Positions 13,058-58,113 of a DNA stretch of 64,000 bases are shown here, piece after piece (the stretch's first letter is position 1; each line of letters starts with the position of its first letter). Under the pieces are notes generated by a model. That model worked only from the letters and a program-made list of their open reading frames with translations. It searched no databases and was not told where the DNA came from. Made by a program: the position numbers and the translations under genes. This DNA is from Octopus vulgaris (lineage: Eukaryota), in the NCBI GenBank assembly GCA_951406725.2, contig OX597842.1, positions 24,986,001-25,050,000 of the forward strand. The letters are read 5' to 3'.

Positions 13058-13092
13058 GTTTCCGACGAAGAGTTCTGCTCGAAACGTTACAC
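13058..13092 (+). ncRNA. Minimal hammerhead-like motif (CCGACGA-A core) in a Penelope-like remnant at 13020-13197
   Basis: GTTT CCGACGA A GAGT-TCT-GCTC GAAA CG T T ACAC; the element ends in (TA)n. Confidence 0.55.
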
Positions 13093-13191
13093 CCTCCTTC
13101 TTCCCTTCCTTCCTGAGTGTCCAATAATACTATATTTGTTCCACGTCCTCGCGTTGTTGTGTTTTCTCTTTGTGTTTTCATGTTTGGATTA

Positions 13192-13249
<58 letters not shown>

Positions 13250-13359
13250 CGAATATTCTTTAGAAATATCTCCACCAGTGGCCTAGCATGTATAAATAGT
13301 CAATAGACAACATATTCTTAATATAAAATAATGTACATTTAAACACAAGAGAATTCTAC

Positions 13360-13865
13360 TATCATCATCATCGTTTAACGTCTGCTTTCCATGCTAGCAT
13401 GGGTTGGACGGTTCAACTGGGGTCTGGGAAGCCAGAAGGCTGCACCAGGCCCAGTCTGATCTGGCAATGTTTCTACAGCTGGATGCCCTTCCTAACACCA
13501 ATCACTCCGTGAGTGTAGTGGGTGCTTTTTGCGTGCCAGGCAAGGCTGGCAACGGCCACGATCGGTTGGTGCTTTTTACATGCCACCGGCATGGAGGCCA
13601 GTCGGGGTGGCGCTGGCAACGGCCACGCTCGGATGGTTCTTTTACGTGCCATCGGCACTGGTATCACAACTACAATTTCCATTGATTTTTGAGCGATTTC
13701 GATTTCACTTGCCTCAAAAGGTCTTCGCAAGCAGAGTTTTGTGTCCCAAGAAGGAAAAGTATGCATAAGCGAGCTGGCTACATCCCAGGAAGAGGCCACT
13801 GGTTATGGTCTCACTTGTCCTGCCAGGTCTTCTCACGCACAGCATACTTCCAAAGGTCTCGGTTG
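13360..13865 (-). mobile_element. SINE family D with (GAT)n tail
   Basis: Shared block GTTGG.GTTAGGAAGGGCATCCAGCTGTAGAAAC...CCCATGCTAGCATGGAAAGC.GACGTTAAACGATGATG; also at 920-1092, 6320-6500(-), 18878-19130 and 31340-31470(-). Confidence 0.75.
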
Positions 13866-13912
<47 letters not shown>

Positions 13913-13920
13913 CTCTACAA

Positions 13921-14180
13921 ATTCCCTGTTCCATGAATTGTTATCTCCGCTTATGCTACAACATCTATATCATATCACTAACTCTTTTGCAACAAGCGCA
14001 GGCCTTCTCTCTGGATAAGATTTCAACAGATCATTGTCTAATAAGGTTTGGACATTCGAACATCCTACATTCATAGGCCTGCACCTTAACCTGAATTTAC
14101 TCAAAGTTGTTGGATTACGACCGGACCCAGGCTGTGGTGCCCTGGGACACCTGCCGGGCCAGACCACAGAACAAATGTAT
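13921..14180 (-). mobile_element. 5' fragment of an RTE LINE (5' UTR plus start of the AP endonuclease)
   Basis: MNVGCSNVQTLLDND...YPERRPALVAKEL-(frameshift)-YDIDVVA, matching the RTE APE N-terminus xxGxWNVRTLLD...PERRTALVARELxRYxIDIAAL. Confidence 0.75.
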
Positions 14181-14528
14181 ATTTCTGTGTGTATATAGGT
14201 ATAAAGTGGAGGCACATAGCCTTAGTGGTTAGAGCAGCGGACTCGCGGTTGAGGGTTCATGGGTTCGAATCTCAGACCGGGTGATGTGTGTGTTTATGAG
14301 CGAAACACCTAAGCTCCATGCTGCTCCGACAGAAGGTAAAAGCGAACTTCTGCTGACTCCTTCGCCACAACTTTCTCTCACTCTTTCCTCCTGCATCTTG
14401 CAGCTCACCTGTGACAGACCGGTGTCCCGTCCAGGTGGGGAACTTATATGCCAAGGAAACCGGGAAACTGGCCCTTATGAGCCAGACATGGCTCAAGAAG
14501 GAACAAACAACATATAGGTATATAGATA

Positions 14529-14572
<44 letters not shown>

Positions 14573-14732
14573 TGTGTGTATTATTTGAAGGATATTTGGC
14601 AGCTAAATCCAGGTGTGGCAATTTCTGTTCATGTGGTTGTGTAATTCCATGATGTGTGTGTGTGTGTGTGTGGTTGTTATTACAGTTGGGGCTGATTTTA
14701 TTATTCTCTTTCTTTTCCGTATTTCTTTGTAG

Positions 14733-14841
14733 CTTGGTCGGTGGGTTACAGTGGGCATGAAGAGACGTGTAACAAGACGGACCTCTGTTGAACCTGCAGA
14801 CAAGAGGTTAAAGACAGATGAGGCCGAAACAAAGAAAGATG
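14733..14841 (+). CDS. KAT6: KAT6A/B internal exon
   Basis: TTTCTTTGTAG acceptor, G|GTAAGG donor, 109 nt, phase 0/1; LGRWVTVGMKRRVTRR...KKD. The junction RRKLGRW resembles the RRGRWG motif of vertebrate KAT6A. Confidence 0.8.
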
Positions 14842-14877
14842 GTAAGGGATTATTTTATTGAAATATATTCTCCATTG

Positions 14878-15975
14878 TCTCTCTCTCTCTCTTTGTTTCT
14901 TTCTCTTTCTCTCTCTTTGTCTCTCTCTCTCACTATCTCTCTCTCTTTGTTTCTCCCTCTCTTTGTCTCTCTCTCTTTGTCTCTCTCATCTCTCTCTTTC
15001 TCTCTCTTTGTCTCTCTCTCACACTATCTCTCTCTTTGTCTCTCTCTCATTGTGTCTCTCTGTGTCTCTCTCTCACTATCTTTCTCACTATCTCTCTCTT
15101 TCTTTCTCTCTCTTTGTCTCTCTCTCTTTGTCCCTCTCTCTGTGTCTCACTCTCTCTTTGTCTCTCTCTCACTATCTCTCTCTTTGTCTCTCTCTCATTG
15201 TGTCTCTCTGTGTCTCTCTCTCACTATCTTTCTCACTATCTCTCTCTCTTCTTTCTCTCTTTGTCTCTCTCTCTTTGTCCCTCTCTCTGTGTCTCACTCT
15301 CTCTTTGTCTCTCTCTCACTATCTCTCTCTCTTTGTCTCTCTCTCTCTCTTTCTCTCTCTCTCACTATCTCTCTCTCTCTCACTATCTCTCTCTCTCTGT
15401 CTTTCTCTCTCTCTGTCTCTCTCTCTCACTATCTCTCTCACTCTCTATGTCTTCCTCTCTATTTGTCTCTCTCTCTCTCTCATTGCTGCTTCCCTTTCCC
15501 TTCCTCTTGGTTTTGCTCACTGTTCTTCTTTGATCTCTCTCCCCACTCCCCACCTGCTTTCTCTGCTCTTCCCTCCTCTGTTTTCTTTACTCGTCCCCAC
15601 TTTCTCAGTTCTATCCCTACTTTCTCCTGCTCTTCCTCTCCCTCTGCTCCTCTTTAGTCTCTATCCTCCCTCACTCTGCTCTCCCGTACTCTCTTCTCTC
15701 CTGTGCTATCCCATGCTCTCTACTCTCCAGTGCTCTCTGCTCTCCCATGCTCCCTGCACTCCCACGCTCCCTGCTCTCCCTCGCTCCCTGCTCTCTTCTC
15801 TCCCATGCTTTCCAGTGCTCTCTGCTCTCCCTAACTCTCTGCTCTCCCATGCTCCCTGTTCTCCCACGCTCTCTGCTCTCCAGTGCTCCCTGCTCTCCCT
15901 AACTATCTGCTCTCCCTAGCTCCCTGCTCTCCAATGCTCCCTGTTCTCCCACGCTCTCTGCTCTCCCGTGCCCCC
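14878..15975. repeat. (TC)n-rich tract with an internal ~145-bp duplication, followed by a ~15-bp CTCCCATGCTCCCTG-like minisatellite
   Basis: Direct reading; it fills most of a KAT6 intron. Confidence 0.85.
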
Positions 15976-16102
15976 TACTCTCCTCTCTTCCTCACTCTTC
16001 ATTCTTATTCCTATATTCTGGCTAACCCTCCTCTCTTGGCCTTCACTCACTCATCATTTCCTTCTCCACTTCTCTCTCTAACCTCACTCCCCTATATTTC
16101 AG

Positions 16103-16192
16103 AACCTGTTCCAGAAGGACGATTGCTCAGACGATCCAATGCTGACCGTTCTAGACGGCTTGCGTCTACAGCGTCCCCACCCAAAAGTTCAG
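16103..16192 (+). CDS. KAT6: KAT6A/B internal exon
   Basis: TATTTCAG acceptor, CAG|GTAACG donor, 90 nt, phase 1/1; EPVPEGRLLRRSNADRSRRLASTASPPKSS. Confidence 0.75.
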
Positions 16193-16768
16193 GTAACGTA
16201 CCCTTCCTTCTCTTGTGGGTGAAACGATGTGGCAGATTGAGGATGGGTTTGCATTCAAAACCTGACTGATCTGGGAAACTCAAAAGGCAGTAGTCTTAGG
16301 TGCACTCAATTCATGGAGTGGAGTAGAGGAGTTTGAATGTGTTGTGTTCTTGAGCAAGACACTTCATTTCATGTTGCCCCTGTTCACACAGCAGATGAAA
16401 ATGAGTAAACTGTGATGGGCATCCCGTCTGGGGAGGAATATATATGGGCCAGAGAAACCAGATGACTGGCCCAGCAATCCTTAAGGGGTAATGTGGGCTT
16501 AAACCCCCCCCCCCATGTGGTAAGAAGCTTCCTTCCAAGCCACATTGTTCTGGGTTCAGTCCCATTGCGTGGCACCTTGGAGAAGTATCTTCTGCTATAG
16601 CCTCAGACCTACAAAAGCCTTGTGAGTGGGTTTTGTAGATGGATGGAAACTGAAAGAAGCCTGTTGTATATATATATTTGTGTGTGTCTGTGTTTGTCTA
16701 CCACCTACTCCCACCATCACTTGACACCCGATACTGGATATGTGTGTGTATATATATGTATGTATAAA

Positions 16769-17725
16769 GGCAGCGAGCTGGCAGATACATTAGCACACCG
16801 GGCAAAATGCGTAGCCGTATTTCGTCTGCCGTTACGTTCTGAGTTCAAATTCCGCCGAGGTCGGCTTTGCCTCTCATCCTTTCGGGGTTGATAAATTAAG
16901 TACCAGTTATGCACTGGGGTCGATGTAATCAACTTAATCCGTTTGTCTGTCCTTGCTTGTCCTCTCTGTGTTTAGCCCCTTGTGGGTAGTAAAGAAATAG
17001 GTATTTTGTCTGCCGTTACGTTCTGAGTTCAAATTCCGCCGAGGTCGACTTTGCCTTTCAGGGTCGATAAAATAAGTACCAGTTACACATTGGGGTCGAT
17101 ATAATCAACTTAATCCGTTTGTCTGTCCTTGCTTGTCCTCTCTGTGTTTAGCCCCTTGTGGGTAGTAAAGAAATAGGTATTTTGTCTGCCGTTACGTTCT
17201 GAGTTCAAATTCCGCCGAGGTCGGCTTTGCCTCTCATCCTTTCGGGGTTGATAAATTAAGTACCAGTTATGCACTGGGGTCGATGTAATCAACTTAATCC
17301 GTTTGTCTGTCCTTGCTTGTCCTCTCTGTGTTTAGCCCCTTGTGGGTAGTAAAGAAATAGGTATTTTGTCTGCCGTTACGTTCTGAGTTCAAATTCCGCC
17401 GAGGTCGACTTTGCCTTTCAGGGTCGATAAAATAAGTACCAGTTACACATTGGGGTCGATATAATCAACTTAATCCGTTTGTCTGTCCTTGCTTGTCCTC
17501 TCTGTGTTTAGCCCCTTGTGGGTAGTAAAGAAATAGGTATTTTGTCTGCCGTTATGTTCTGAGTTCAAATTCCGCCGAGGTCGACTTTGCCTTTCATCTT
17601 TTCGGGGTCGATAAATTAAGTACCAGTTACGCACTGGGGTCGATATAATCAACTTAATCCGTTTGTCTGTCCTTGTTTGTCCCCTCTGTGTTTAGCCCCT
17701 TGTGGGCAATAAAGAAATAGGTATT
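16769..17725 (+). mobile_element. Pentamer of SINE family A (units of 184/176/184/176/184 bp)
   Basis: Unit starts at 16817, 17001, 17177, 17361 and 17537. Confidence 0.9.
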
Positions 17726-17868
17726 GTAGTGTAAGACATAGTAATACTTTTACTCCCTGGAGGGCGTGTGCAATGTTATGGTTTGTAATTACATGTGGAT
17801 AATGACGAATGAAACGATGATGCAGTGATGTTCATGCTGATGTAATGGCTTCTTTATTATTCCTGCAG

Positions 17869-19972: not shown

Positions 19973-20280
19973 TATATGACCAGATATTGATTGATTTTCT
20001 TTACTTTTCCTCTCTGCCTGTGTGGATTGTTTTCAAGTATTTTGGTTTTTTTCTGGGAGTCCCTTTTTAAAGCCGAAGAAATAGCTAACGTTTTTTGGCT
20101 GCTATTTCTAAACTTCGGTATGTGGTAAAGCAAATCTTTGCTGAACCCTAATTATTAAGTATTACTTAAGTTTACCATAAAATGGTCCTTTTTTCATGCC
20201 GAATTCTACTTGGTGAAATTATTGATTACTTCTTAATTAATTAATTTTACCCTTTGTTATTATATATATATATATATAAA

Positions 20281-20627
20281 TAAAAAAAGGGAAATGAAGA
20301 AAATGCTGACAAAATAATTTAAGTAAGGGAGAGTGTATTTAATTAGGTGAAAGTTCTTTTTACCGGTTGCGCATTTGTTATGCTTATCAAAAGATATATT
20401 TTTAAAGAGAGATAGATTTCCTTTCTGATAGATTTTTTTCTCTTATCTGATAAGCAACAACAGATAAGAGAAAAAAATCTATCAGAAAGGAACTCTATCT
20501 CTCTTAAAAAATATCTTTTGATAAGCATAACAAATGCGCAACCGGTAAAAAGAACTTTCACCTAATTAAATACACTCTCCCTTACTTAAATTATTTTGTC
20601 AGCATTTTCTTCATTTCCCTTTTTTTA
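20281..20627. repeat. Near-perfect palindrome (~168-bp arms, 11-nt loop) between (TA)n tracts; probable Penelope-like remnant
   Basis: 20281-20449 is the reverse complement of 20461-20627 with only a few mismatches; it contains a degenerate hammerhead-like motif at 20514-20553. Confidence 0.93.
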
Positions 20628-20735
20628 TATATCACAACTCGTGTTCCACATCTCCTTTTTTAAATATATATATATATATATATATTTATATGTGAGGTTG
20701 AATTATTAAATCTGATGTTGTGTTGTATTTTTCAG

Positions 20736-30512: not shown

Positions 30513-30591
30513 GTATAAAATATATGTATACAATTATTCAATAGCAAGATAAAACTCTGAGTTTCAGACGCCGAAATCGGTTAGATGGCCA

Positions 30592-30652
30592 GATTACTGA
30601 AGAGATAGTGTTGTGGATTTCCACTTCAGTATCCGAAACTCAGAGTTTTATC
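30592..30652 (+). ncRNA. Hammerhead-like motif (CTGAAGA core) in a Penelope-like remnant at 30530-30760
   Basis: GATTA CTGAAGA GATA..GTGGATTTCCAC..TATC C GAAA CTC A GAG T T TTATC. A second family copy on the minus strand at 56429-56490 has helix I GGTAA/TTATC and helix II GATG/CATC (compensatory change). Confidence 0.6.
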
Positions 30653-32373
30653 TTGGCTATTGAATAATTGTCACATATTATTTTACAGATAAATTTCCTC
30701 TATTTACATATTATTGAGGTCTCTTTCTTTCTTTTGTTATCTTACTGTTTTTACCAATATATATATATATATATATAATATGTATATACAGAGAAAGAAA
30801 GAGAGACACACATCACCTCATTTTTTTGTATCCACCAAAAATCTTTATTAGATCTGAAGTAAAAAGACTTCAAAAGATATGATAATGATAAATAAAAGAG
30901 AAAGGCAGACAAACCAACACCACATCATCATATTTTTCTGTGTTTTAAAACAGTCTGTCTCTCAAAACTCTACAATATTAGATCTGAAAATAAAAAGACT
31001 TCAAAAGATATGATAATAATAATAATAATAATAAAAAATAATACGAATACTAAAGGGTTAACACAAAGGGATCTATCTCCTCCATCTTGTTGCACTTTTA
31101 TTTTTCTGCAGTTGCCCCTGCATCGCTCTTGCTACAGATGTCTTATTTGTTTTTTTGTGTATTTTTCTTCTTTGTGTTGTTCTTATTGTACAACTGACTT
31201 TTCTTTATTTGGTTGTTATGTTTTTGTTAAGGGAGAAAATTGCTTTGCAGCATTTTGTTTCAGTTCTTGATATTCTCCGAGTTGGAATTCTGACGTGGTC
31301 TACTTTACCATTTATCCTTTTGGAGTCGATGTCATCATATCATCGTTTAACATCTGCCTTCCACGCTAGCATGGGTGGGATGGTTTCAGGAGAGCCATTC
31401 AGGAAGAAGCCTGCACCAGACTTCTGTGATGGTTTTGGCAGAATTTTTACAGCTGGATACCTTTCTAGGTGGACTTATTTCTTTATTGCCCACAAGGGGC
31501 TAAACACAGAGGGGACAAACAAGGACAGACAAAAGAATTAAGTCGATTATATCGACCCCAGTGCATAACTGGTACTTATTTGGCGGGGAGCTGGCAGAAA
31601 CGTGAGCACACCGGGCGAAATGCGTAGCCGCATTTCGTCTGCTGTTACATTCTGAGTTCAAATTCTGCCGAGGTCGACTTTGGCTTTCATGCTTTCGGGG
31701 TCGATTAAATAAGTACCAGTTACGCACTGGGGTCGATATAATCGACTTAATCCCTTTGTTTGTCCCTCTGTGTTTAGCCCCTTGTGGGTAGTAAAGAAAT
31801 TGGTACTTATTTAATCAACTCCGAAAGGATGAAAGGCAAAGTCGACCCCAGCAGAATTTGAACTCAGAACATAACTGCAGATGAAATACCTATTTCTTTA
31901 CTACCCACAAGGGGCTAAACACAAAGGGAACAAACAGATTAAGTCGATTACATCGACCCAATGTGTAACTGGTACTTAATTTGTCGACCCTGAAAGGATG
32001 AAAGGCAAAGCCGACCTTAGCGGAATTTGAAATCAGAAAGTAACAGCAGATGAAATACCAACTAAGCATTTCGCCCAGCGTGCTAACGTTTCTGCCAGCT
32101 TGCCGCCTTCTAGGCGGACTTAGTGCTTTTTTCATGGTACCAGCACAGGCGGTTTGAGGTGAGTAATGCTTTCTACGTGACACCAGCACAGGTGAGGTCA
32201 GTTTTGGCAAGGTTTTTACAGCTAGATGTCCTTCCAAATACCAACCACTTTATAGTGTGGGCTGGGTGCTTTTAAGTGGCACCTGCACTGACAGGGTCAC
32301 CAAGTACACACCTGTAAAATACTGATGTCGGTGGTATTGAATTAACCTCTCCACAAATCTGCTGGTTTTGTGC

Positions 32374-33080: not shown

Positions 33081-33919
33081 ACCAGAAACCAATGGAATTA
33101 TAATAGAAGACTTACACTAGCACTTGTCGTCATTGTGGGGTTGATGAAATAAGGTAGCAGTGAAATACTGGGGTAGATTTAATTTTCCTATAAAGCATCC
33201 TAAATGTGAATGGAATTACTTCAAAAGGTATCTATTAACAAAAACAGGTAAAGTGATCTAAATTAAAAGCTTCCATCAAAATTTTAGAAGGGTTAGCTTG
33301 TTGCTCTCCACACTGAGAGATCCTGTGTCCTGGCAGAGGTTGTGAAACAGGCCAGGCTGAGAGTATCGGATGAGTGCACCTTGGAAGATCTTGGGGCTAA
33401 CATCGTAGCTAGAGTCATGGTCTTGTCTTTGGGGTATTTCTGAGACACTGTACCTGAATTATTCCAAAGTCAATGTGTGGTAAGAAATTTTCTTCCCAAC
33501 CACTTGGTTTCAGGTTCAGTTCCACTGTGTGGCACCTTGGGTTAATTTACTATAGCATCATGTCAGCCAAATGCTTGTGAGTGGATTTGGTGGATGGAAA
33601 TTGAAAGAAGCCCATTGAATGCATATATCTGTACAGGCGTGGCTGTGTGGTAAGAAGCTTGCTTCCCAACCGCATGCTTCTGGGTTCAGTCCCACTCTGT
33701 GGCACCTTAGGCAAGTGTCTTCTACTATAGCCTCAGGCTCACCAAAGTCTTATGAGTGGATTTGGTAGATGGGAAACTGAAAGAAGCCTGTTGTGTGTGT
33801 GTGTATGTATGTATATATATATGTATGTGTGTAGTTAATCCAAACATGAAAGCACAAAAAAACACAACAACGCGAGGACGTGGAACAAATATAGTATTAT
33901 TGGATGCTCAAGAAGGAGG

Positions 33920-33954
33920 GTTTAACGTTTCGAGCGGAGCTCTTCGTCGGAAAC
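33920..33954 (-). ncRNA. Minimal hammerhead-like motif, same family (remnant at 33832-34015)
   Basis: Reverse complement GTTT CCGACGA A GAGC-TCC-GCTC GAAA CG T T AAAC: helix I GTTT/AAAC, helix II GAGC/GCTC, palindromic ACGT helix III. Confidence 0.65.
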
Positions 33955-35767
33955 ATAGAAGGGAAGACAGAGGAAAAAATCGCCAACGGTACACACGCGG
34001 TCACATTTTGAAAATATATATATAAGTACCTATGTGTATGTATCTTTGTGTTTGTCCCTTCATCACCACTTGACAACTGGTGTTGGTGTGTTTGTGTCCC
34101 TGTAACTTAGCAGTTCGGCAAAAGAGTCCAATAGAACAAGTAGTAGGCTTACAAAGAATAAGTCTTGGGGTTGATTTCTTTGACTAAAAGAAACCCCTAT
34201 AAACATATATATTGAAGGCGGTGAGCTGGCAGAAACGTTAGCACGCCAGATAGAATAAGTACTAGGCTTACAAAGAATAAGTCCTGGGGTCGACTTGCTC
34301 GACTAAAAGGTGGTGCTCCAGCGTGGTCGCAGTCTGGTATTCTCTCGGAACTGTTGTAACTTAAGGTAAGTCCGAAAATATAAAAATGCCGATTTTTTGG
34401 CATTTTTCTGGAATCCCCGTAGCCGAAAATGTGGGTTTCTGGCAAAAAAAAGAAAAATAAATTCGGAGGCGCAGGAGTGGCTGTGTGGTAAGTAGCTTGC
34501 TAACCAACCACACGGTTCCGGGTTCAGTCCCACTGCGTGGCATCTTGGGCAAGTATCTTCTGCTATAGCCCCGGGCCGACCAATGCCTTGTGAGTGGATT
34601 TGGTAGACGGAAACTGAAAGAAGCCTGTCGTATATATGTATGTGTGTGTGTTTGCGTGTCTGTGTTTGTCTCCCTAGCATTGCTTGACAACCGATGCTGG
34701 TGTGTTTACGTCCGCGTCACTTAGCGGTTCGGCAAAAGAGACCGATAGAATAAGTACTGGGCTTACAAAGAATAAGTTCTGGGGTCGATTTGCTCGACTA
34801 AAGGCGGTGCTCCAGCATGGCCGCAGTCAAATGACTGAAACAAGTAAAAAGAAAAGAAAGAAAAAAAAGATATTGGGGGTGGGGAAGTCTTTCCAATGCA
34901 TGTGCAAGTGGCTGAGTACTCCACAGATACGCGTACCTTTGACGTAGTTCTCAGGGAGATTCAACATGACATAGTGCGACAAGGCTGGCCCTTTGAAATA
35001 CAGGTACTACTCATTTTTGCCAGCTGAGGAGCAACGTGAAATAGAGTGTCTTACTCAGGGACAATACACAGCCAGGAATCGAACTCGCGACCTTTACGAT
35101 CGTGAGCCGAATACCCTAACCACTAAACCACGTGCCTTCGCATACCTGCAAAATATAGGCGTGAGAAGTGGCTGTTATGTCAGTTTTACCTTGTACCGGC
35201 AGAAAAGGGTTTTCGTAAAACGTTCGAATGCAGGTAAACCATACGGAGTGGAAAGGGATACAGTTAAAAGTGCCTTTGGAGAGGTCGGATATTGGAAATT
35301 TGGAGAAAGGAATTGGCGGAGTAGGGAATAAGGATCTTTGGATTATAGTCTCTTTTCTTTCTTTTTTCTCTTTTACTTGTTTCAGTCATTTGACTGCTGC
35401 CATGCTGGAGCACCGCCTTTAGTCGAGCAAATCGACCCCGGGACTTATTCTTTTGTAAGCCCAGTACTTATTCTATCGGTCTCTTTTGTCGAACCGCTAA
35501 GTGACGGGGACATAAACACACCAGCATCGGTTGTCAAGCAATGCTAGGGGGACACACAAACACAGACACACAAACACACATACATATATATACATATACA
35601 TATATACGACAGGCTTCTTTCAGTTTCCGTCTACCAAATCCACTCACAAGGCATTGGTCGGCCTGGGGCTATAGCAGAAGACACTTGCCCAAAATGCCAC
35701 GCAGTGGGACTGAACCCAGAACCATGTGGTTGGTAAACAAGCTACTTACCACACAGCCACTCCTACG

Positions 35768-39166: not shown

Positions 39167-40303
39167 GTAAGTCCGTATTATTGACAGTACATGGTTAGTA
39201 TAGGCGGCGAGCTGGCAGAAACGTTAGCACGTCGGGCGATATGCGTCGCCGTATTTCGTCTGCCGTTACGTTCCAAGTTCAAATTCCGCCGAGGTTGACT
39301 TTGCCTTTCATCCTTTCGGGGTCGATAAATTAAGTACCAGTTACGCACTGGGGTCGATATAAACGACTTAATCCCTTTGTCTCTCCTTGTTTGTCTCTGT
39401 GTGTAGTCCCTTGTGGGCAGTAAAGAAATAGGTATTTCGTCTGCCGTTACGTTCCAAGTTCAAATTCCACCGAGGTTGACTTTGCCTTTCATCCTTTCGG
39501 GGTCGATAAATTAAGTACCAGTTACGCACTGGGGTCGATATAAACGACTTAATCCGTTTGTCTGTCCTTGTTTGTCCCCCCTGTGTGTAGCCCCTTGTGG
39601 GTAATAAAGAAATAGGTATTTCGTCTGCCATTACGTTCTGGGTTCAAATTCCGCCGAGGTCGACTTTGCCTTTTATCCTTTCGGGGTCGATAAATTAAGT
39701 ACCAGTTACGCACTGGGGTCGATGCAATCGACTTAATAACTATGTCTGTCCTTGTTTGTCCCCTCTATGTTTAGCCACTTGAGGGCAATAAAGAAATAAG
39801 AATCGTTTGCACGCCGGGCAAAATCCTTTGCAGTTTTTTGTTCGTCTTTACTCTCAGGAACCTTTCTCAACCTCTGCACTGGTTGCCCCAAACTTCTGTA
39901 TGTATGACCATATTTTGATGGTAAAATACAGAGGTCCCGATGCATCTCTGTAACCATAAAACGGCATTCCTTCGATATAACTCGACAAAATCAAAACATT
40001 TCACTTCGGGTGTTGTGGAGTATAGATATAACGAAATTATGCCAGCAATGTCTCATTTTAAACTTAAATGTGTGTATGTGTTTGTGTGTGTGTTTGTCCA
40101 CCCCGCCCAACATCGCTTGACAGCCGATGCTGCTGTGTTTACATCCCCGTAACTTAGCGGTTCGGCAAAAGAGACCATTAGAATAAGTACTAGGCTTACA
40201 AAAAATAAGTCCTGGGGTCGATTTGCTTGACTAAAAGGCGGTGCTCCTGCATGGCCACTGTCACATGACTGAAACAAGTAAAAGAGTAAATAGTATAATA
40301 TAT

Positions 40304-40936: not shown

Positions 40937-41620
40937 CCACTCACAAGGCTTTGGTTGGCCCGAGGCTATAGCAGAAGGCACTGGCTCAAGGTGCCACAAA
41001 GTGGGACTGAACCCGGAACAATGTGGTTAGTAAGTAAGCTACTTACCACACAGCCACTCCTACACCTATTTGTGTAAATGTTTATAATTACACTTAATAT
41101 AAAAATGCAGTAAAATTTTCCTTTTTGAATCTCAATCATTTAAATATCCTCTGTAGCTTATATCATTGTTTTTCTATTATTTCAGGATATCAGATGACAT
41201 TGGAATTAAAGAATTATGTTTTACCCTGGATGCATCACCAACACTTATTATTATTCAAGGACCAGAAGAACACGTTATACAGAGCACATATTTCACTGTT
41301 TTTTTTTTCCATAAAATCTATGATATGTTTCCTCTGAACTGAAGTATATAGTGGAAAAAAAAAAACCTCTTTACTTTACTGTGTGGAATGTGTACCTGAT
41401 GACCTTGGATTCTAATTTAACTCAGATTACAAAGTAATTAGCAGCATCTACAGATATTGACTAAAATTACAGAAATATTGGCTAAGAAATATGTGTTAAG
41501 AATTAAATATATATATATATGTATATAAAGTTAATCCAAACAAGAAAGCACAAAAAAAACACAAGAAAGCGAGGACGTGGAACAAATATAGTATTATTGG
41601 ACGCTCAGGAAAGAAGGAGT

Positions 41621-41655
41621 TTTTAACGTTTCGAGCGGAGCTCTTCGTCGGAAAC
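41621..41655 (-). ncRNA. Minimal hammerhead-like motif, same family (remnant at 41527-41730, upstream of the ZNF ATG)
   Basis: Same core and stems as 33920-33954. Confidence 0.6.
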
Positions 41656-42005
41656 ATAGGAGAAGGAAAGATCCAGAGAAGGGAAGACAGGGGAAAAAAA
41701 ATCGCCAACGGTACCCACGTGGTCACATGTAATTATATATGTATATATATATATATAACTATTGAAAAGTTGCAAGGCGCAACGCAAATTTTAGGACAAT
41801 AAAAATAAGAAAAACGTGGAAATTTTACCGGTGTGTGTGTTACGTAATAAAGCACCAAAACAAAATGACTCTCCCCAGACACAACGGAATATGCTTCAGC
41901 ACATGAACTCATATAAAGAATCTTGCAAACCAAATCCAAAAACGAAATATATGGTAATGGTTCAGAAGAAAAATATCTGTGTAGTATGGTGAGAGGAGGA
42001 AAATA

Positions 42006-44369
42006 ATGGAAAATGAATTGGATGAGAGCACAGGTAAATGTGAGACACAAATTGAAAGGTTTGGTTTTTCTGATGAGATGCCAAAAGATTCAGAAATACC
42101 ATTATACCAGTGTGATATCTGTAAAAAATCATTCTCTCAAAAATGTGATCTCACTACACACCAACTTGTCCATACAAAAAAGATGCCATATTCGTGTGAT
42201 ATCTGTGATAAATCCTTCTCTCTAAGTCATCACTTGACTGTGCACAAACGCATTCATACAGGGGAGAAGCCATATCGCTGTGATATCTGTGGCACATCGT
42301 TCTCTCAAAATGACCTCTTAACTAAGCACAAGCGTGTTCATACAAAAAAGATGCCACATTCGTGTGATATCTGTGGTAAATCATTCTCTCGCGTTCGCCA
42401 CGTAACCGATCACATACGCATTCACACAGGAGAGAAGCCGTTTCACTGCGATATCTGTGGAAAATCATTCTCTCTTAGCCATCACTTAACTAGTCACAAA
42501 CGTGTTCATACAGGAGAAAGGTCATTTAGCTGTAATGTCTGTGGTAAATCATGCTCGCAGAAAAGTAACTTAACTAAACACAAACTGATTCATACGGGAG
42601 AGGGTCCTGATCCCATTGGCATCTCTGGTGAATCATTCGTTCAGAATGATGACATAACTACTCAGAAATGCCTTCAGACAGCAGAGAAACTATATCACTG
42701 TGATATTTGTGGTAAATCCACCTCTAGTAGTAGTAACTTAACCAAGCATATACGAATTCATACAAGAGAGAAACCATATCGTTGTGATATCTGTGGAAAG
42801 TCATTCACTCAGAAGAATAGTCTTACTTCTCATAAATACACTCACACAGGAGAAAAACCATTTGAATGTGATATTTGTGGTAAATCATTCTCTCAAAACA
42901 GTACCCTTATGTATCACAAATCCATTCATACTGGCGAGAAACCATATCACTGTGATATTTGTGGTGAATCATTCTCTCGGAAGAATAGTCTTACTTCTCA
43001 TAAATACACTCACACAGGAGAGAAACTATATGAATGTGATATTTGTGGTAAATCATTCTCTCGAAACAGTACCCTTATGTATCACAAATCCATTCATACT
43101 GGCGAGAAACCATATCACTGTGATATCTGTGGTAAATCTTTCTCAAGTAGTCGTCATTTGACCGAACACAAAAATATTCATACCGGAGATATGCCATATC
43201 AGTGTGATATCTGTGGCAGTTCATTTTCTCGGTATTATCACTTAAATGAACATAAACGCACTCATTCTGGAGAGAATCCACATCAGTGTGATATCTGTGG
43301 TAAATCGTTCTCCGGTAGTAGTAATTTAACCAATCACATACGAATTCATACAGGTGAGAAGCCGTATCGTTGTGATATCTGCGGTAAATCATTCTCCCGA
43401 AATCATGACTTGACTGTACACAGACGATATCATACTGGAGAGAAGCCATATCGCTGTGATATCTGTGGTAAATCGTTTCCGGCAAGTACGAATTTAACCA
43501 CACACAAACGAATTCACACAGGTGAGAAACCACACGTGTGTGATATCTGTGGAAAATCGTTCCCTCGGAAAAGCTGCTTAACCGAGCATAAGCGTAGTCA
43601 CACAGGTGAGAAACCATATCACTGTGATATCTGTGGTAAGTTGTTCTCGCAGAGAGGTAATTTGACAGAGCACATTCATATTCATACAGGTGAGAAGCCA
43701 TACAACTGTAACACCTGTGGGAAGACGTTCTCCCAGAGAAGTAATTTGACCGAACACATTCGTATTCATACAGGTGAGAAACCGTATCACTGTGATATCT
43801 GTGGTAAGGCGCTGTCCAAAAAAATCAGTGTGGTTGAGCACAAATATATTCATACAGGTGAGAAACCATATCATTGTGATATCTGCGGTAAAGCTTTCTC
43901 TCAGAGAGGAAACCTGCCCAAACACAAACGCATTCACACAGGTGAGAAACCTTACAACTGTGATATCTGTGGTAAATCATTCTCAGTGAATTTTTATTTG
44001 ACTGAGCATAAACATAGTCATACAGGTGAGAAGCCGTATCATTGCGACGTCTGTGATAAATCATTCTCTTGGCTTCATAGTTTGACCGAACACAAGCAGA
44101 TTCATACAGGAAAGAGGCAGTTTAATTGTGATATTTGTGGTAAGGTGTTCACTCGAAATCTTCATTTAGTTGAACATAAATATACTCATACAGGAGATAA
44201 GCCGTATCGATGTGATGTGTGTGGTAAGTCATTCCTTCGAAATTTCCACTTGACCGAACACAAATATATTCATACAGGAGAGAAGCCATATCACTGTGAC
44301 GCCTGTGGAAAGTCATTCTCTCGCAAGCAACAGTTGACTTCACATGGTTGTATCCGTACAGAAAAATAA
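42006..44369 (+). CDS. Single-exon tandem C2H2 zinc-finger protein, 787 aa (25 canonical fingers, 1 degenerate internal finger, 1 atypical terminal finger)
   Basis: Repeated [28 protein letters not shown] units after a short acidic N-terminus; no effector domain recognised. Typical of the expanded octopus C2H2 family. Confidence 0.97.
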
Positions 44370-45408: not shown

Positions 45409-45410
45409 TT

Positions 45411-48400
45411 GACAGTCAAGGCTGATCTGGAACCCAACCTACGAAGCAATTGCCCCAGCTTCCCTCTCATGGTTGGCGAAAGCGATGTGGTGGACAACAA
45501 AAAACCTGGCTGATGACAGTCAAGGCTGATCTGGAACCCAACCTACGAAGCAATTGCCCCAGCTTCCCTCTCATGGTTGGCGAAAGCGATGTGGTGGACA
45601 ACAAAAAACCTGGCTGATGACAGTCAAGGCTGATCTGGAACCCAACCTACGAAGCAATTGCCCCAGCTCCCCTCTCATGGTTGGCGAAAGCGATGTGGTG
45701 GACAACAAAAAACCTGGCTGATGACAGTCAAGGCTGATCTGGAACCCAACCTACGAAGCAATTGCCCCAGCTCCCCTCTCATGGTTGGCGAAAGCGATGT
45801 GGTGGACAACAAAAAACCTGGCTGATGACAGTCAAGACTGATCTGGAACCCAACCTACGAAACAATTGCCCCAGCTCCCCTCTCATGGTTGGCAAAAGCG
45901 ATGTGGTGGACAACGAAAAACCTGGCTGATGACAGTCAAGGCTGATCTGGAACCCAACCTACGAAGCAATTGCCCCAGCTTCCCTCTCATGGTTGGCGAA
46001 AGCGATGTGGTGAACAATGAAAAACCTGGCTGATGACAGTCAAGGCTGATCTGGAACCCAACCTTCGAAGCAATTGCACCAGCTCCCCTTCAGGGTTGGC
46101 GAAAGCGATGTGGTGAACAATGAAAAACCTGGCTGATGACAGTCAAGGCTGATCTGGAACCCAACCTACGAAGCAATTGCCCCAGCTCCCCTTCAGGGTT
46201 GGCGAAAGCGATGTGGTGGACAACGAAAAACCTGGCTGATGACAGTCAAGGCTGATCTGGAACCCAACCTTTGAAGCAATTGCCCCAGCTCCCCTTCAGG
46301 GTTGGCGAAAGCGATGTGGTGAACAACGAAAAACCTGGCTGATGACAGTCAAGGCTGATCTGGAACCCAACCTACGAAGCAATTGCCCCAGCTCCCCTTC
46401 AGGGTTGGCGAAAGTGATGTGGTGAACAACGAAAAACCTGGCTGATGACAGTCAAGGCTGATCTGGAACCCAACCTTCGAAGCAATTGCCCCAGCTCCCC
46501 TCTCATGGTTGGCGAAAGCGATGTGGTAACAACGAAAAACCTGGCTGATGACAGTCAAGGCTGATCTGGAACCCAACCTACGAAGCAATTGCCCCAGCTT
46601 CTCTCTCATTGTTGGCGAAAGCGATGTGGTGGACAACGAAAAACCTGGCTGATGACAGTCAAGGCTGATCTGGAACCCAACCTACGAAGCAATTGCCCCA
46701 GCTCCCCTCTCAGGGTTGGCGAAAGCGATGTGGACAACGAAAAACCTGGCTGATGACAGTCAAGGCTGATCTGGAACCCAACCTACGAAGCAATTGCCCC
46801 AGCTCCCCTCTCATGGTTGGCGAAAGCGATGTGGTGGACAACAAAAATCCTGGCTGATGACAGTCAAGGCTGATCTGGAACCCAACCTACGAAGCAATTG
46901 CCCCAGCTTCCCTCTCATTGTTGGCGAAAGCGATGTGGTGGACAACAAAAAACCTGGCTGATGACAGTCAAGGCTGATCTGGAACCCAACCTACGAAGCA
47001 ATTGCCCCAGCTTCCCTCTCAGGGTTGGCGAAAGCGATGCGGACAACGAAAAACCTGGCTGATGACAGTTAAGGCTGATCTGGAACCCAACCTACGAAGC
47101 AATTGCCCCAGCTCCCCTCTCAGGGTTGGCGAAAGCGATGTGGTGGACAATGAAAAACCTGGCTGATGACAGTCAAGGCTGATCTGGAACCCAACCTACG
47201 AAGCAATTGCCCCAGCTTCCCTCTCATTGTTGGCGAAAGCGATGTGGTGGACAACGAAAAACCTGGCTGATGACAGTCAAGGCTGATCTGGAACCCAACC
47301 TACGAAGCAATTGCCCCAGCTTCCCTCTCATTGCTGGCGAAAGCGATGTGGTGGACAATGAAAAACCTGGCTGATGACAGTCAAGGCTGATCTGGAACCC
47401 AACCTACGAAGCAATTGCCCCAGCTCCCCTCTCAGGGTTGGCGAAAGCGATGTGGACAACGAAAAACCTGGCTGATGACAGTCAAGGCTGATCTGGAACC
47501 CAACCTACGAAGCAATTGCCCCAGCTCCCCTCTCATGGTTGGCGAAAGCGATGTGGTGGACAACAAAAATCCTGGCTGATGACAGTCAAGGCTGATCTGG
47601 AACCCAACCTACGAAGCAATTGCCCCAGCTTCCCTCCCATGGTTGGCGAAAGCGATGTGGTGGACAACGAAAAACCTGGCTGATGACAGTCAAGGCTGAT
47701 CTGGAACCCAACCTACGAAGCAATTGCCCCAGCTTCCCTCTCATGGTTGGCGAAAGCGATGTGGTGGACAACAAAAAACCTGGCTGATGACAGTCAAGGC
47801 TGATCTGGAACCCAACCTACGAAGCAATTGCCCCAGCTCCCCTCTCATGGTTGGCGAAAGCGATGTGGTGGACAACAAAAAACCTGGCTGATGACAGTCA
47901 AGGCTGATCTGGAACCCAACCTACGAAACAATTGCCCCAGCTCCCCTCTCATGGTTGGCGAAAGCGATGTGGTGGACAACGAAAAACCTGGCTGATGACA
48001 GTCAAGGCTGATCTGGAACCCAACCTACGAAGCAATTGCCCCAGCTTCCCTCTCATGGTTGGCGAAAGCGATGTGGTGAACAATGAAAAACCTGGCTGAT
48101 GACAGTCAAGGCTGATCTGGAACCCAACCTTCGAAGCAATTGCACCAGCTCCCCTTCAGGGTTGGCGAAAGCGATGTGGTGAACAATGAAAAACCTGGCT
48201 GATGACAGTCAAGGCTGATCTGGAACCCAACCTACGAAGCAATTGCCCCAGCTCCCCTTCAGGGTTGGCGAAAGCGATGTGGTGGACAACGAAAAACCTG
48301 GCTGATGACAGTCAAGGCTGATCTGGAACCCAACCTTTGAAGCAATTGCCCCAGCTCCCCTTCTGGGTTGGCGAAAGCGATGTGGTGAACAACGAAAAAC

Positions 48401-50824
48401 CTGGCTGATGACAGTCAAGGCTGATCTGGAACCCAACCTTCGAAGCAATTGCCCCAGCTCCCCTTCAGGGTTGGCGAAAGTGATGTGGTGAACAACGAAA
48501 AAACCTGGCTGATGACAGTCAAGGCTGATCTGGAACCCAACCTTCGAAGCAATTGCCCCAGCTCCCCTCTCATGGTTGGCGAAAGCGATGTGGTGGACAA
48601 CGAAAAACCTGGCTGATGACAGTCAAGGCTGATCTGGAACCCAACCTACGAAGCAATTGCCCCAGCTTCTCTCTCATTGTTGGCGAAAGCGATGTGGTGG
48701 ACAACGAAAAACCTGGCTGATGACAGTCAAGGCTGATCTGGAACCCAACCTACGAAGCAATTGCCCCAGCTCCCCTCTCAGGGTTGGCGAAAGCGATGTG
48801 GACAACGAAAAACCTGGCTGATGACAGTCAAGGCTGATCTGGAACCCAACCTACGAAGCAATTGCCCCAGCTCCCCTCTCATGGTTGGCGAAAGCGATGT
48901 GGTGGACAACAAAAATCCTGGCTGATGACAGTCAAGGCTGATCTGGAACCCAACCTACGAAGCAATTGCCCCAGCTTCCCTCTCATTGTTGGCGAAAGCG
49001 ATGTGGTGGACAACAAAAAACCTGGCTGATGACAGTCAAGGCTGATCTGGAACCCAACCTACGAAGCAATTGCCCCAGCTTCCCTCTCAGGGTTGGCGAA
49101 AGCGATGTGGACAACGAAAAACCTGGCTGATGACAGTTAAGGCTGATCTGGAACCCAACCTACGAAGCAATTGCCCCAGCTCCCCTCTCAGGGTTGGCGA
49201 AAGCGATGTGGTGGACAATGAAAAACCTGGCTGATGACAGTCAAGGCTGATCTGGAACCCAACCTACGAAGCAATTGCCCCAGCTTCCCTCTCATTGTTG
49301 GCGAAAGCGATGTGGTGGACAACGAAAAACCTGGCTGATGACAGTCAAGGCTGATCTGGAACCCAACCTACGAAGCAATTGCCCCAGCTTCCCTCTCATT
49401 GTTGGCGAAAGCGATGTGGTGGACAACGAAAATCCTGGCTGATGACAGTCAAGGCTGATCTGGAACCCAACCTACGAAGCAATTGCCCCAGCTTCCCTCT
49501 CAGGGTTGGCGAAAGCGATGTGGACAACGAAAAACCTGGCTGATGACAGTTAAGGCTGATCTGGAACCCAACCTACGAAGCAATTGCCCCAGCTTCCCTC
49601 TCATGGTTGGCGAAAGCGATGTGGTGGACAACAAAAAACCTGGCTGTGACAGTCAAGGCTGATCTGGAACCCAACCTATGAAGCAATTGCCCCAGCTCCC
49701 CTCTCAGGGTTGGCGAAAGCGATGTGGTGGACAACGAAAAACCTGGCTGATAACAGTCAAGGCTGATCTGGAACCCAACCTACGAAGCAATTGCCCCAGC
49801 TTCCCTCTCATTGCTGGCGAAAGCGATGTGGTGGACAATGAAAAACCTGGCTGATGACAGTCAAGGCTGATCTGGAACCCAACCTACGAAGCAATTGCCC
49901 CAGCTCCCCTCTCAGGGTTGGCGAAAGCGATGTGGTGGACAATGAAAAACCTGGCTGATGACAGTTAAGGCTGATCTGGAACCCAACCTACGAAGCAATT
50001 GCCCCAGCTTCCCTCTCATTGCTGACGAAAGCGATGTGGTGGTCAACGAAAAACCTGGCTGATGACAGTCAAGGCTGATCTGGAACCCAACCTACGAAGC
50101 AATTGCCCCAGCTCCCCTCTCAGGGTTGCTGACGAAAGCGATGTGGTGGACAACGAAAAACCTGGCTGATGACAGTCAAGGCTGATCTGGAACCCAACCT
50201 ACGAAGCAATTGCCCCAGCTTCCCTCTCAGGGTTGGCGAAAGCGATGTGGTGGACAACGAAAAACCTGGCTGATGACAGTCAAGGCTGATCTGGAACCCA
50301 ACCTACGAAGCAATTGCCCCAGCTTCCCTCTCATTGTTGGCGAAAGTGATGTGGTGGACAACGAAAAATCTGGCTGATGACAGTCAAGACTGATCTGGAA
50401 CCCAACCTACGAAGCAATTGCCCCAGCTTCCCTCTCATTGTTGGCGAAAGTGATGTGGTGGACAACGAAAAACCTGGCTGATGACAGTCAAGGCTGATCT
50501 GGAACCCAACCTTTGAAGCAATTGCCTCAGCTTCCCTCTCATTGTTGGCGAAAGCGATGTGGTGGACAACGAAAAACCTGGCTGATGACAGTCAAGGCTG
50601 ATCTGGAACCCAACCTATGAAGCAATTGCCCCAGCTTCCCTCTCATCGTTGGCGAAAGCGATGTGGTGGACAATGAAAAACCTGGCTGATAACAGTCAAG
50701 GCTGATCTGGAACCCAACCTACGAAGCAATTGCCCCAGCTCCCCTTCAGGGTTGGCAAAAGCGTTGTGGTGGACAATGAAAAACCTGACTGATGACAGTC
50801 AAGGCTGATTTGGAACCCAACCTA
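45411..50824 (+). repeat. Tandem satellite, ~52 copies of a 104-bp unit (shorter and longer indel variants) derived from an RTE LINE ORF
   Basis: Unit GACAGTCAAGGCTGATCTGGAACCCAACCTACGAAGCAATTGCCCCAGCT...CCTGGCTGAT with period 104 (45411, 45515, ...). The 103-bp variant translates YEAIAPAPLQGWRKRCGGQRKTWLMTVKADLEPNL. Confidence 0.97.
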
Positions 50825-51895: not shown

Positions 51896-51934
<39 letters not shown>

Positions 51935-52031
51935 ATATTTGGAGGGCAAGCCACTATGTGGTCGGCCGTATGCTATATATATATATATATGTATATTTGG
52001 AGGGCAAGCCACTATGTGGTCAGCCGTATAC

Positions 52032-52092
<61 letters not shown>

Positions 52093-54755: not shown

Positions 54756-54806
<51 letters not shown>

Positions 54807-55094
54807 AAAACTCCGTTCGTTACTTTTTTACTCTTTTACTTGTTTCAGTCCTTTGACTGTGGCCATGATGATGATGATGATGATGATGATGATATATATA
54901 TATATATATATATACTCTTTACTTTTTACTCTTTACTTGTTTCAGACTGCGGCATGCACCGCCTTTAGTCGAGCAACTCGACCCCGGGACTTATTCTTTT
55001 GCAAGCCCAGTACTTATTCTATTGGTCTCTTTTTGCCGAACCGCTAAGTAACGGGGACATAAACACACCAGCATCGGTTGTCAAGCAATGCTAG

Positions 55095-55154
<60 letters not shown>

Positions 55155-55448
55155 AAAAAAAAAATTTTTTGGGGCTGCTATTTCTACTAAGTTCAGTATG
55201 TGGCAAAGTAATTTATTTTACTAAGCCCTAATTATATAATATATATATATAGATATATATATATATACATATATATATATAGACTGTTGGGTTTATTCAT
55301 AAAGTATTGGAATCTTACATTTTGCCTAAAAAATAGATCTACAAATTCAAAATCCCTACATATCTCACATCTCTTTTCTTTCCTCCACCTCACTCTCTAT
55401 TTTGTATCCTATCTAAATTAACTATGACTTAACCATTTTCTTACACTG

Positions 55449-55494
55449 TCTCCGATGAAGGGATATAATAAATATCCTGGAAACAGCTGTAAGA
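55449..55494 (+). ncRNA. Minimal hammerhead-like motif (CCGATGA-A core) in a Penelope-like remnant at 55283-55560
   Basis: TCT CCGATGA A GGGATAT-AATAA-ATATCCT G GAAA CAGCTG T A AGA; palindromic ACAGCTGT helix III, GUA cleavage triplet, flanked by (TA)n. Confidence 0.65.
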
Positions 55495-55577
55495 TCTTCT
55501 GTCTATAAATGTTCCAATATCTATACAGTCTCGGTTTTTTATCTCATTACTAAAAAAAAATTATATATATATATACG

Positions 55578-55611
<34 letters not shown>

Positions 55612-55803
55612 TATATATATGTATATATATGAGTGTGTGTGTGTGTATGTATATATGTGTGTATATATATATGTGTATATATATATATATGTGTATATAT
55701 ATGTGTGTATATATATATGTATGTGTATATATATGTGTGTATATATGTATATATATATATATGTATAAATATGCACATATATATATATGTATATGTATAT
55801 ATA

Positions 55804-55864
<61 letters not shown>

Positions 55865-55865
55865 G

Positions 55866-55904
<39 letters not shown>

Positions 55905-57028
55905 GTATGTATTTATATTTATACACAACCTCACGCACTAGCTATGCACATTTGCTCAATGTCGTTAAACTGTGTTACCTGTCCAGTTAGTAGTGAGTAC
56001 AATGTAGCCATTGTTACCATTAGTAACCATCTATTAGGCAAAAATATCACCTGCGTTGGAACAACTCATGACTGATGACAAAAGCACACCCCCCTCATCC
56101 TCATCCAGTAATCCTCTGTTTAACCCCCACGTTGCACACACACACACATACAAAATGAATTCATCATGTTTTATGCAACACGACTGTATATAAATATATA
56201 TGTATGTGTGTGTGTGTGTGTGTATACAGGTGTGGTCAGAAGCTTGCTTACCAACCACATGGTTCCGGGTTCAGCCCCACTGCGTGGCATATCTTGGGCA
56301 TGTGTTTTCTACTATAGCCCTGGGCCAATCAAAGCCTTGTGAGTAGATTTGGTAGAAAGAAACTGAAAGAAGCCTGTTGTATATATATATATCTGTAAAT
56401 GTAATATGTAACAATTATTTGGTAGCCATGATAAAACTCCGAGTTTCAGATGCTGAGGTGGAAATCCACACTGCCATCTCTTCTGTTACCCGGCCATTGG
56501 GAAAAATGCTACCGGGCATTGTCTTGTTGAAACACCACCTCTTTTCTGTTGGCAATCTCCAGCCTCTGTTCTTTGGTTTTTTGCTTCAAACTAACCAGCT
56601 TTTGACAGTACGCATCAGAATTAATGGTCTGATTTTGTGGGAGAAGCTTATAATAAATAAGGCCTTTATGATCCCACCAAAGTCAAAGCATAGCTTTTGT
56701 GGCATGGATATTCATCTTTGGTTGCTGTTTTGGAGGATCCTTATAGCAAACTCCAGGATCTTTTTGCACTACATTTTCATACACAATCCATTGTTCATCT
56801 CCAGTTCCAAGTTGTTTCAAAAAAAGGCATTCTTTCATTCCATTTCAAAAGCATATCACAAACGGGATACCAGTCCAAATAATTCTTTCCTGAGAATATA
56901 TGAGGGACCCATTACATTATAGCAAGAAATGTATCCTAGCTTCATTAGGTGTTCATGGGCCATACTTTTAGCAACTTGCAACCTCTCTGCAAGTTCTCTA
57001 GTCATGATATTTGAGTTTTCAATTTTTT

Positions 57029-57300
57029 CAGGAAACATTTTTTTCACGCTGAGAGTTGCTGAAGCATGGAACAAACTGCCAGCATCGGTTGTTAGTTGTC
57101 GGAGCACTGCATCCTTCAAAACTTCCATGCTTCCTGAGAGATTCGCCAACACTACACCTGATTTTCTCCCCTCCATACACACACAAGCATGTATCTGAAT
57201 CATACACTGTTCACTTCCCAGACATTTCTACATTACTGCATATACTCTATATGCACTTTCTGACAAGTTGTGGTGCACCTGAGCACTGTATACAATAATT
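57029..57300 (+). mobile_element. CR1-like LINE 3' end (3' UTR repeated at 57630-57794 with an (ATT)n tail)
   Basis: FFTLRVAEAWNKLPASVVSCRSTASFK, the typical CR1/L2 RT C-terminal RV...WN.LP..VV.....SFK motif. Confidence 0.8.
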
Positions 57301-57794
57301 TCGATACACCTGTTGTATAAAAGAGTATTATAAAAGGAGAGAGGGGCTCTCTACCCTACTTTTGACCAGGCTCCCGTGGCTTTTATGGGTTTTCCCACGA
57401 GTAACCTTTCGAAGCGCATCCCCTTATTGGGAATTACAATTGTTATATTTCCGTTATCTCTGGAATTTTTACACGTTTTTTTTGCAGACGGTCAAAACCC
57501 TTTGTAACTTTTGTCCTGTGTTTTGTCCCTTTATGTTTTAATTATTTTTGTCAGCCCTTTAGGCCAATAAACGAATTAATTATTATTATTAACTACACTT
57601 TAGTCGTCCGCATACGACTTTTCCCCTTGTAACACTATACCTGATTTTCTCCCCTCCATACACACGCAAGCATGTATCTGACTCATACATTGTTCGCTTT
57701 CCAGACATTTGTACATTACTGCATGTACTTTATATGCACTTTCTGACAAGTTGTGGTGCACCTGAGCACTGTATACAATAATTTCATTATTATT

Positions 57795-58113
57795 ATTTAA
57801 GAAACACACAAAAGCCGTTCGATTCACTTCAACATTTAAGTTTAATTTGTCAAAATATTTTCGCCGCTAAAATCCGCGACCTGTTCACTGACAAAGTCCG
57901 TGCTGCGGGATGCAGCACGGACTTTGTCAGTGAACAGGTCGCGGATTTTAGCGACGAAAATATTTTGACAAATTAAACTTAAATGTTGAAGTGAATCGAA
58001 CGGCTTTTGTGTGTTTCTTAAATGGCTTATAAACACCTTCCACGCTGCAATTGTTTTCGTTTCAGCACACGATCTCGGATCAAATTACTTGCTATGCGAG
58101 TACATCTCCGTAA
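57795..58113 (+). mobile_element. Penelope-like remnant forming a palindrome with 112-bp arms (57795-57906 / 57912-58023) plus a 3' tail
   Basis: One mismatch between arms, 5-nt loop GGGAT. The tail 58040-58113 recurs inverted at 52091-52163 inside (TA)n. Confidence 0.75.
57923..57972 (+). ncRNA. Minimal hammerhead-like motif with G3:C8 swapped core (GTGAACA)
   Basis: TTTGTCA GTGAACA G GTCGC-GGATTTTA-GCGAC GAAA ATAT T T TGACAAA: 7-bp helix I, 5-bp helix II, palindromic AATATT helix III. A mirror copy lies on the minus strand in the left arm of the palindrome. Confidence 0.65.

Follow-up and report, generated by a model that had tools for sequence, protein, structure and literature searches.

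Small hammerhead variants of Penelope-like elements (PLEs), with a short palindromic stem III and cleavage as dimers, were reportedly described by Lünse et al. 2017. According to the available text of Cervera and de la Peña 2014 (PMC4209133), the minimal hammerheads of metazoan PLEs cleave weakly as dimers, and the available part of a review (PMC6765202) gives the same account. In the anole, the available text of Frangieh et al. 2024 (PMC11167929) describes a PLE hammerhead that depends on its protein and in which the double change C3G/G8C is a partial rescue; insertion in vitro, where reverse transcription starts internally, does not require it. Of the double mutants in that part of the core, only the G:C swap was rescued, according to the available part of Roberts et al. 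2023. Here we analyze a 64,000-nucleotide stretch of Octopus vulgaris DNA (contig OX597842.1, positions 24,986,001 to 25,050,000; hereafter the window), in which five families of hammerhead-like motifs, named A to E, lie in the 3' pseudo-long terminal repeats (pLTRs) of PLEs. Judging from their sequences, these motifs are probably slow, dimer- or protein-assisted type I hammerheads whose core is loosely constrained.

The octopus motifs share with the pLTR hammerheads in the available text of PMC4209133 the type I topology, a short helix I, an extra nucleotide after A9 (in A and B), a palindromic helix III, an H17 that is often U, a majority of solo copies, pairs on opposite strands, natural U3-A8, and the presence of many families in one genome. 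They differ in the core: none of the 44 alignment rows of that paper has G3, C4, or U6, and the second strands it lists are GAAA or AGAAA, whereas the octopus majorities show U4C (families A, C, and D), G3-C8 (B), A13C (E), and A6U (A2, a sister family of A). As in the anole Poseidon element (available text of PMC11167929), the pLTR hammerhead is followed by the start site of reverse transcription and a tail; G3-C8, which in that element was an engineered partial rescue, is the natural state of family B. Among the natural core variants in the available text of Perreault et al. 2011 (PMC3088659) are U3-A8, U4C in a viroid, and A6C with low activity, with no mention in that text of G3-C8, A6U, or A13C.

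The architecture, the extra nucleotide, the palindromes, U3-A8, opposite-strand pairs, and dimer cleavage are already published (PMC4209133, available text), as is the viroid U4C. A diversified set of non-canonical hammerheads, as claimed in a first, sequence-only reading of this DNA, is indeed present; its novelty was overstated, since the extra nucleotide and U3-A8 were published and U4C was known. We found no U4C as a PLE family majority in the searched literature, including the 44 rows of PMC4209133 and the 34 rows of File S2 of PMC8557442 as far as these sources were available, and G3-C8 (C3G/G8C) appeared in the available parts of that literature only as engineered variants. Natural family-wide G3-C8, A6U, or A13C did not appear in the searched literature either, and Lünse et al. 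2017 and supplement file 1 of Cervera may hold them.

All five motif families are 3' pLTRs of PLEs. Each lies on the same strand as an open reading frame (ORF) for a GIY-YIG endonuclease, 0.4-2 kb behind it, and in families A, B, C, and E a reverse transcriptase (RT) is found as well, whereas upstream of family D only the endonuclease, and no RT, was found. The view of the sequence-only reading that these are PLE-type minimal hammerheads is thereby borne out, and the link it envisaged to both RT and GIY-YIG holds in full for all families except D. The supporting loci (L numbers) were selected by upstream sequence, and the fractions given here show linkage, not frequency. In family A, RT and endonuclease precede the motif in L368 and the endonuclease in L367 and L369, among six extended loci. 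In family B, a 755-aa RT + GIY-YIG ORF is present in L358, and in 18 of 30 loci the ORF end, mostly with 95-100% identity, lies about 1 kb upstream of the motif; a Pfam search of this ORF gave no match at 0.01, and the call of RT and GIY-YIG therefore rests on motifs and on weak tblastn/blastp matches to other ORFs. RT and endonuclease occur upstream of family C in 21/30 loci, and an endonuclease remnant accompanies the family D pLTR in 9/30. For family E, a GIY-YIG search revealed a Neptune-type endonuclease ahead of the motif in L142 and L136, and an RT is present in L152; L151 and L062 are further ORF-linked loci. Other hallmarks of PLEs are also present, namely tandem or inverted pLTRs, a tail, and microsatellite targets. 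ORF fragments near motifs in L050, L060, L024, L165, and L169 were rejected as links, the motif being a separate insertion in (TA)n.

Families C and D are assigned to the Hydra clade by their CxCX5C linker (CSCRNKKLC in C, CNCRPGTIC in D), which overturned a Poseidon-type reading of both. A CX2-5CxxC linker before GIY-YIG points to the Neptune/Nematis clades for A, A2, B, and E. Pairwise identities of 21-31% part four lineages (E/N/G, A/A2, B, and C/D), so the families, described earlier as five unrelated ones, are five PLE families in about four lineages, with C and D together. With the Hydra-clade PLEs in the available text of Craig et al. 2021 (PMC8557442), families C and D share the linker, (TA)n targets, 8-9-nt palindromes, and one additional nucleotide ahead of GAAA; such a nucleotide is common among Hydra elements, and the extra G of family D was dropped as a novelty. 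By eye, the family C RT is similar to Hydra-1_Obim. A CTGA-core hammerhead from an octopus Hydra element is already published, and CTGA cores fill 34/34 rows in the available part of File S2 of that paper, whereas families C and D are mostly CCGA.

Two observations concern the sequences around these ORFs. The stretch between ORF and motif is TG-rich in the family C loci L266-L295 and CA-rich in the other families. In L326 and L327, which represent one duplicated locus only, an A2-type end follows a Hydra-like endonuclease remnant, an arrangement hinting at pLTR exchange between clades.

The window copies are 5'-truncated ends inside (TA)n or (ATT)n, frequently with an inverted partner (Table 1), and the window holds no PLE ORF remnants at tblastn E<1e-4. 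Every 7-nt core listed in the sequence-only reading is found in the sequence, its plus-strand coordinates being core starts and its minus-strand ones the low ends of the motifs. The common architecture it described (GAAA included) holds in general, except at 20518, where GCAA stands and helix I is contiguous for 2 bp only. Its CTGAAGA at 30597 is how the window copy reads, not the majority core of the family; the sibling on the minus strand was wrongly given that same core, and the helix II of family D lacks the expected G10.1-C11.1 pair adjoining GAAA, being flanked in the window copy by an extra A and an extra G. Absent from that account were the inverted partners of family B (57888-) and family E, the sixth family F, and the A13C change of family E. 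Helix I is mismatched in the family A copy at 13062, and the window copy of family F has GCAA, with GAAA in three further copies.

Table 1. Hammerhead-like motifs and their pLTRs in the window.
Feature	Coordinates	Strand	Core start	Details
Family A solo pLTR	13019..13195	+	13062	motif 13058-13092; core CCGACGA (U4C); helix III ACGT; predicted cut after 13088
Family A solo pLTR	33833..34013	-	33950	motif 33954-33920, intact
Family A solo pLTR	41528..41731	-	41651	
Family B inverted pair in (ATT)n	57797..58113	both	57930+	motifs 57923-57972+ and 57895-57846-; core GTGAACA (G3-C8); helix I 7 bp; helix III AATATT; predicted cut after 57965
Family C pLTR with truncated inverted copy (about 30530-30575)	30530..30757	+	30597	motif 30591-30653; helix III ACTCAGAGT; Hydra clade
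Family C subfamily copy	56392..56511	-	56485	core CAGAAGA; helix III ACTCGGAGT
Family D pLTR	55283..55561	+	55452	motif 55448-55495; core CCGATGA (U4C); helix III ACAGCTGT; Hydra clade
Family E, two pLTR ends inverted	20279..20656	both	20518+ and 20390-	core TTGATAA (U3-A8); GCAA (A13C); helix III ACCGGT; helix I 2 bp
Sixth family F	41758..41952	+	41762	core TTGAAAA (U3-A8); helix III AATT

A descriptor with G5, A6, A9, GAAA, a palindrome, and two helices fixed, and positions 3, 4, 7, and 8 free, gave 8 matches in the window, 6 of them Watson-Crick at 3:8, against a mean of 0.28 matches (maximum 2) and of 0.03 Watson-Crick matches (maximum 1) in 60 block shuffles. It picked up 5/8 of the sites named in the sequence-only reading, missing 13062 and 30597 because helix I is mismatched in those copies, and 20518 because of its GCAA and 2-bp helix I.

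In the 2.8-Gb genome, first-look candidates numbered 1625 (A), 1007 (B), 1395 (C), 2351 (D), and 773 (E), figures which are not copy numbers. Among the collected copies the majority core is CCGACGA in family A (48/72), GTGAACA in B (71/80), CCGAAGA in C (52/82), CCGATGA in D (45/66), and TTGATAA in E (49/54), with a few of the misses being register shifts. U4C is hence the majority state in three families, and the T in the 30597 core is likely a product of CpG decay; in family C, C>T is seen at the core CpG in 25/82 copies and at another CpG in 20/82. Only family E fits the published first-strand consensus, CUGANGA or UUGANAA, and A to D are therefore classed as variants rather than strict members. 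The GAAA strand (G12-A15.1) is conversely present in A to D, whereas family E has GCAA in 53/54 copies. An exact genome-wide pattern for family E returned 18 copies with position 13 other than C (16 T, 2 G, 0 A), so that no exact GAAA copy was found, and 43 copies are identical over 111 nt.

Type I topology, with a helix I of at least 3 bp and a helix II, fits the majorities of A, B, C, and D, E being the exception with 2 bp. The palindromic helix III is closed by A15.1-U16.1 and followed by H17 in the families. Both the G10.1-C11.1 pair and the extra nucleotide after A9 are found in A and B; family E has only the pair, family C requires a bulge, and family D, lacking the pair, has CCTG before GAAA in 46/66 copies. 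Genomic copies, like those of the window, are located in (TA)n or (ATT)n, and an inverted partner occurs in 20/30 (B), 20/30 (C), 25/30 (E), and 6/30 (D) loci, some of which overlap. Their 3' ends are fixed at one or two positions, 40-250 nt past the predicted cut; the two end clusters, at about 124/183 (B), 92/160 (C), 111/270-290 (D), and 103/145 nt (E) from the core, are likened to the PLE tail. The copies are solo, inverted, or ORF-linked, and not the head-to-tail arrays of non-coding monomers that characterize non-LTR retrozymes. A similar short word occurs near the 3' ends of A (13138-13150, CCACGTCCTC), E (20631-20646, CCACATCTCC), and B (58100-58110, TACATCTCC), and is perhaps tied to the initiation of reverse transcription.

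Besides F, the families A2, G, H, I, K, and N lie beyond the original set. Family A2, of which no copy was found in the window, has ORFs about 53-60% identical to those of A and carries A6U in its core, CTGTNGA. The family represents the pLTR of a young autonomous PLE, of which 150 copies or more show 98-99% identity over 186 aa; the core is CTGTTGA in 27/30 loci (L201-L230), and motif-ORF-motif tandems occur in 4/5 long loci (L231-L235), whose frame of 1119-1214 codons has Pfam matches to RT and weak ones to GIY-YIG. In older copies, after removal of 10/65 rows that the parsing pattern failed to fit, T occupies position 6 in 31/33, position 7 is A in 8, C in 7, G in 6, and T in 10, and H17 varies. 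This H17 variation was confirmed in contigs of public sequencing runs, in which A2 and B each occur under four organism codes. Family N is a young Neptune-type family (781 codons; L153, L156, and related loci) with the same TTGATAA core as family E and a canonical GAAA; its endonuclease region is 62% identical to that of E, for which the family is a natural control. A recurring motif in L286 and L325 (3 copies in 2 loci, helix II weak) has CTGCCGA/CTGCTGA cores (A6C), and a lone motif in L104, with TTGTTAA (U3-A8 with U6) and a 6-bp helix I, is possibly a second A6U family or a decayed copy.

We examined the 3:8 pair in a relaxed scan of 377 sequences (1.48 Mb) that left positions 3, 4, 6, 7, and 8 free. 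The 284 matches form 11 families present in at least two loci, from which E is left out because of its GCAA, and 19 singletons. All 11 recurring families, 7 of which lie outside the selection of the sequence-only reading, are Watson-Crick at 3:8 (6 C:G, 4 U:A, and 1 G:C), against 8 of the 19 singletons. Shuffled sequences gave 52 matches in 4.25 Mb, 18 of them paired at 3:8; this amounts to about 18 chance matches per 1.48 Mb, in line with the singleton number. The claim that 3:8 is always paired holds beyond chance across families, but not as five separate changes: three of the five families have C3:G8, which leaves two changes among them. The pattern thus reflects at least two independent changes, and between the sister families A (GTTT/AAAC) and A2 (CTTT/AAAG) helix I shows a compensatory change. 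The covariation expected over genomic copies is seen between families, not within single ones.

We propose that, in a tandem transcript, two copies would pair their helix III palindromes, thereby building helix III, and that the paired dimer would cleave behind H17 and so release the RNA of the element from the precursor. Cutting would be slow or protein-gated. Integrated copies would stem from RNA left uncut at the 3' motif, because reverse transcription starts downstream of it; since an uncut template is needed, selection would act against fast cleavage, and weak cores (U4C, G3-C8, A6U, and A13C) could consequently become fixed, whereas gross disruption of 3:8 could not. Of the variants, G3-C8 has the best prospects of being active, and family E, which combines A13C with a helix I of 2 bp, is the likeliest to be dead. 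A bolder version, which we entertain only tentatively, is that these PLEs form an allelic series in which young families break nearly every core rule (G3-C8, U4C, A6U, and A13C) and yet all cut with the help of the RT-endonuclease or a dimer partner, slowly enough that the template lasts until reverse transcription.

PLE hammerheads cleave weakly, and the motif was dispensable in the sole in vitro system. A single genome with young families whose cores are canonical, swapped (G3-C8), or apparently crippled (A6U and A13C) opens the question of why PLEs carry hammerheads to direct comparison, with the cognate ORF intact or nearly so for B and A2. In several young families, changes fixed at core letters that are normally invariant would allow a test of whether the elements need to cut at all. 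As foreseen in the sequence-only reading, most of the hammerhead-like families described here escape strict CUGANGA/GAAA searches.

Several results weigh against slow but functional hammerheads. Family E has spread recently despite its A13C and 2-bp helix I, which fits a dead relic equally well. Within families, variation resembles neutral decay, with no 3:8 covariation; the naive p of 9e-6 for 3:8 pairing in the 11 families is too strong, because these are related, and only two independent changes can be placed on the ORF lineages (C:G to U:A within E/N/G, and G:C in B). The A2 motif showed no position 6 or 7 variant at 5% in the contigs of public runs, so that its freedom at position 7 rests on the collected loci. 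Monomer folds of A, A2, B, and E are not unusually stable (z +0.2 to -1.7), the family D monomer folds as a non-hammerhead hairpin, and, according to the available text of PMC11167929, no RNA-seq reads of the anole element end at the cut site.

Among other explanations, chance pattern matches in repeat-rich, AT-rich DNA deserve almost no credence. The chance rate of loose descriptors given above would allow for them, as would an Rfam search of the window, in which none of the 145 matches at E<=5 is a hammerhead; yet the excess over shuffles in the window, the constant placement of all five families downstream of PLE ORFs, and the 3:8 pairing in every recurring family have already largely refuted this explanation. 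It is less improbable, if still unlikely, that the motifs are dead or dispensable descendants of hammerheads, carried as passengers in pLTRs or kept as protein-binding structure. Young families do carry A13C or A6U, hammerhead mutants had no effect on insertion in vitro (available text of PMC11167929), Naiads spread without canonical hammerheads, and inserted copies are uncut at the predicted site. Against this reading, the active-fold pair 3:8 is preserved as C:G, U:A, or G:C in 11/11 families, and position 7 and H17 vary as they would in a working hammerhead.

The suggestion of the sequence-only reading that each family has a helix III palindrome of its own, selected as a dimerisation code which blocks cross-family cleavage, now appears very unlikely. 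The five window palindromes are all different and homoduplexes are predicted to be more stable than most heteroduplexes, but orthogonality needs no selection, as any two different palindromes mismatch, and dimers are thought to form in cis within tandem transcripts. Moreover, ACCGGT is common to E and I, ACATGT to N and H, and ACGT to A and A2. The family C palindrome ACTCAGAGT is also present in Penelope-3_HM, a Hydra element, and palindromes of 8-9 nt are typical of the Hydra clade in the available part of PMC8557442 File S2. Palindromes therefore follow clade.

The tandem arrays of the window contain none of the motifs. The array at 45410-50824 consists of 52 copies, about 95% alike, of a 104-bp unit; CTGATGA occurs in many units, and the descriptor search found no hammerhead within this array. 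The array at 42195-44338 has an 84-bp unit whose consensus resembles, by eye, C2H2 zinc-finger coding repeats. The intervals 60672-62578, 4187-4816, 16817-17725, and 39251-39798 hold a 149-bp tandem array plus a tandem common repeat of 176-216 bp, which resembles a short interspersed nuclear element (SINE-like).

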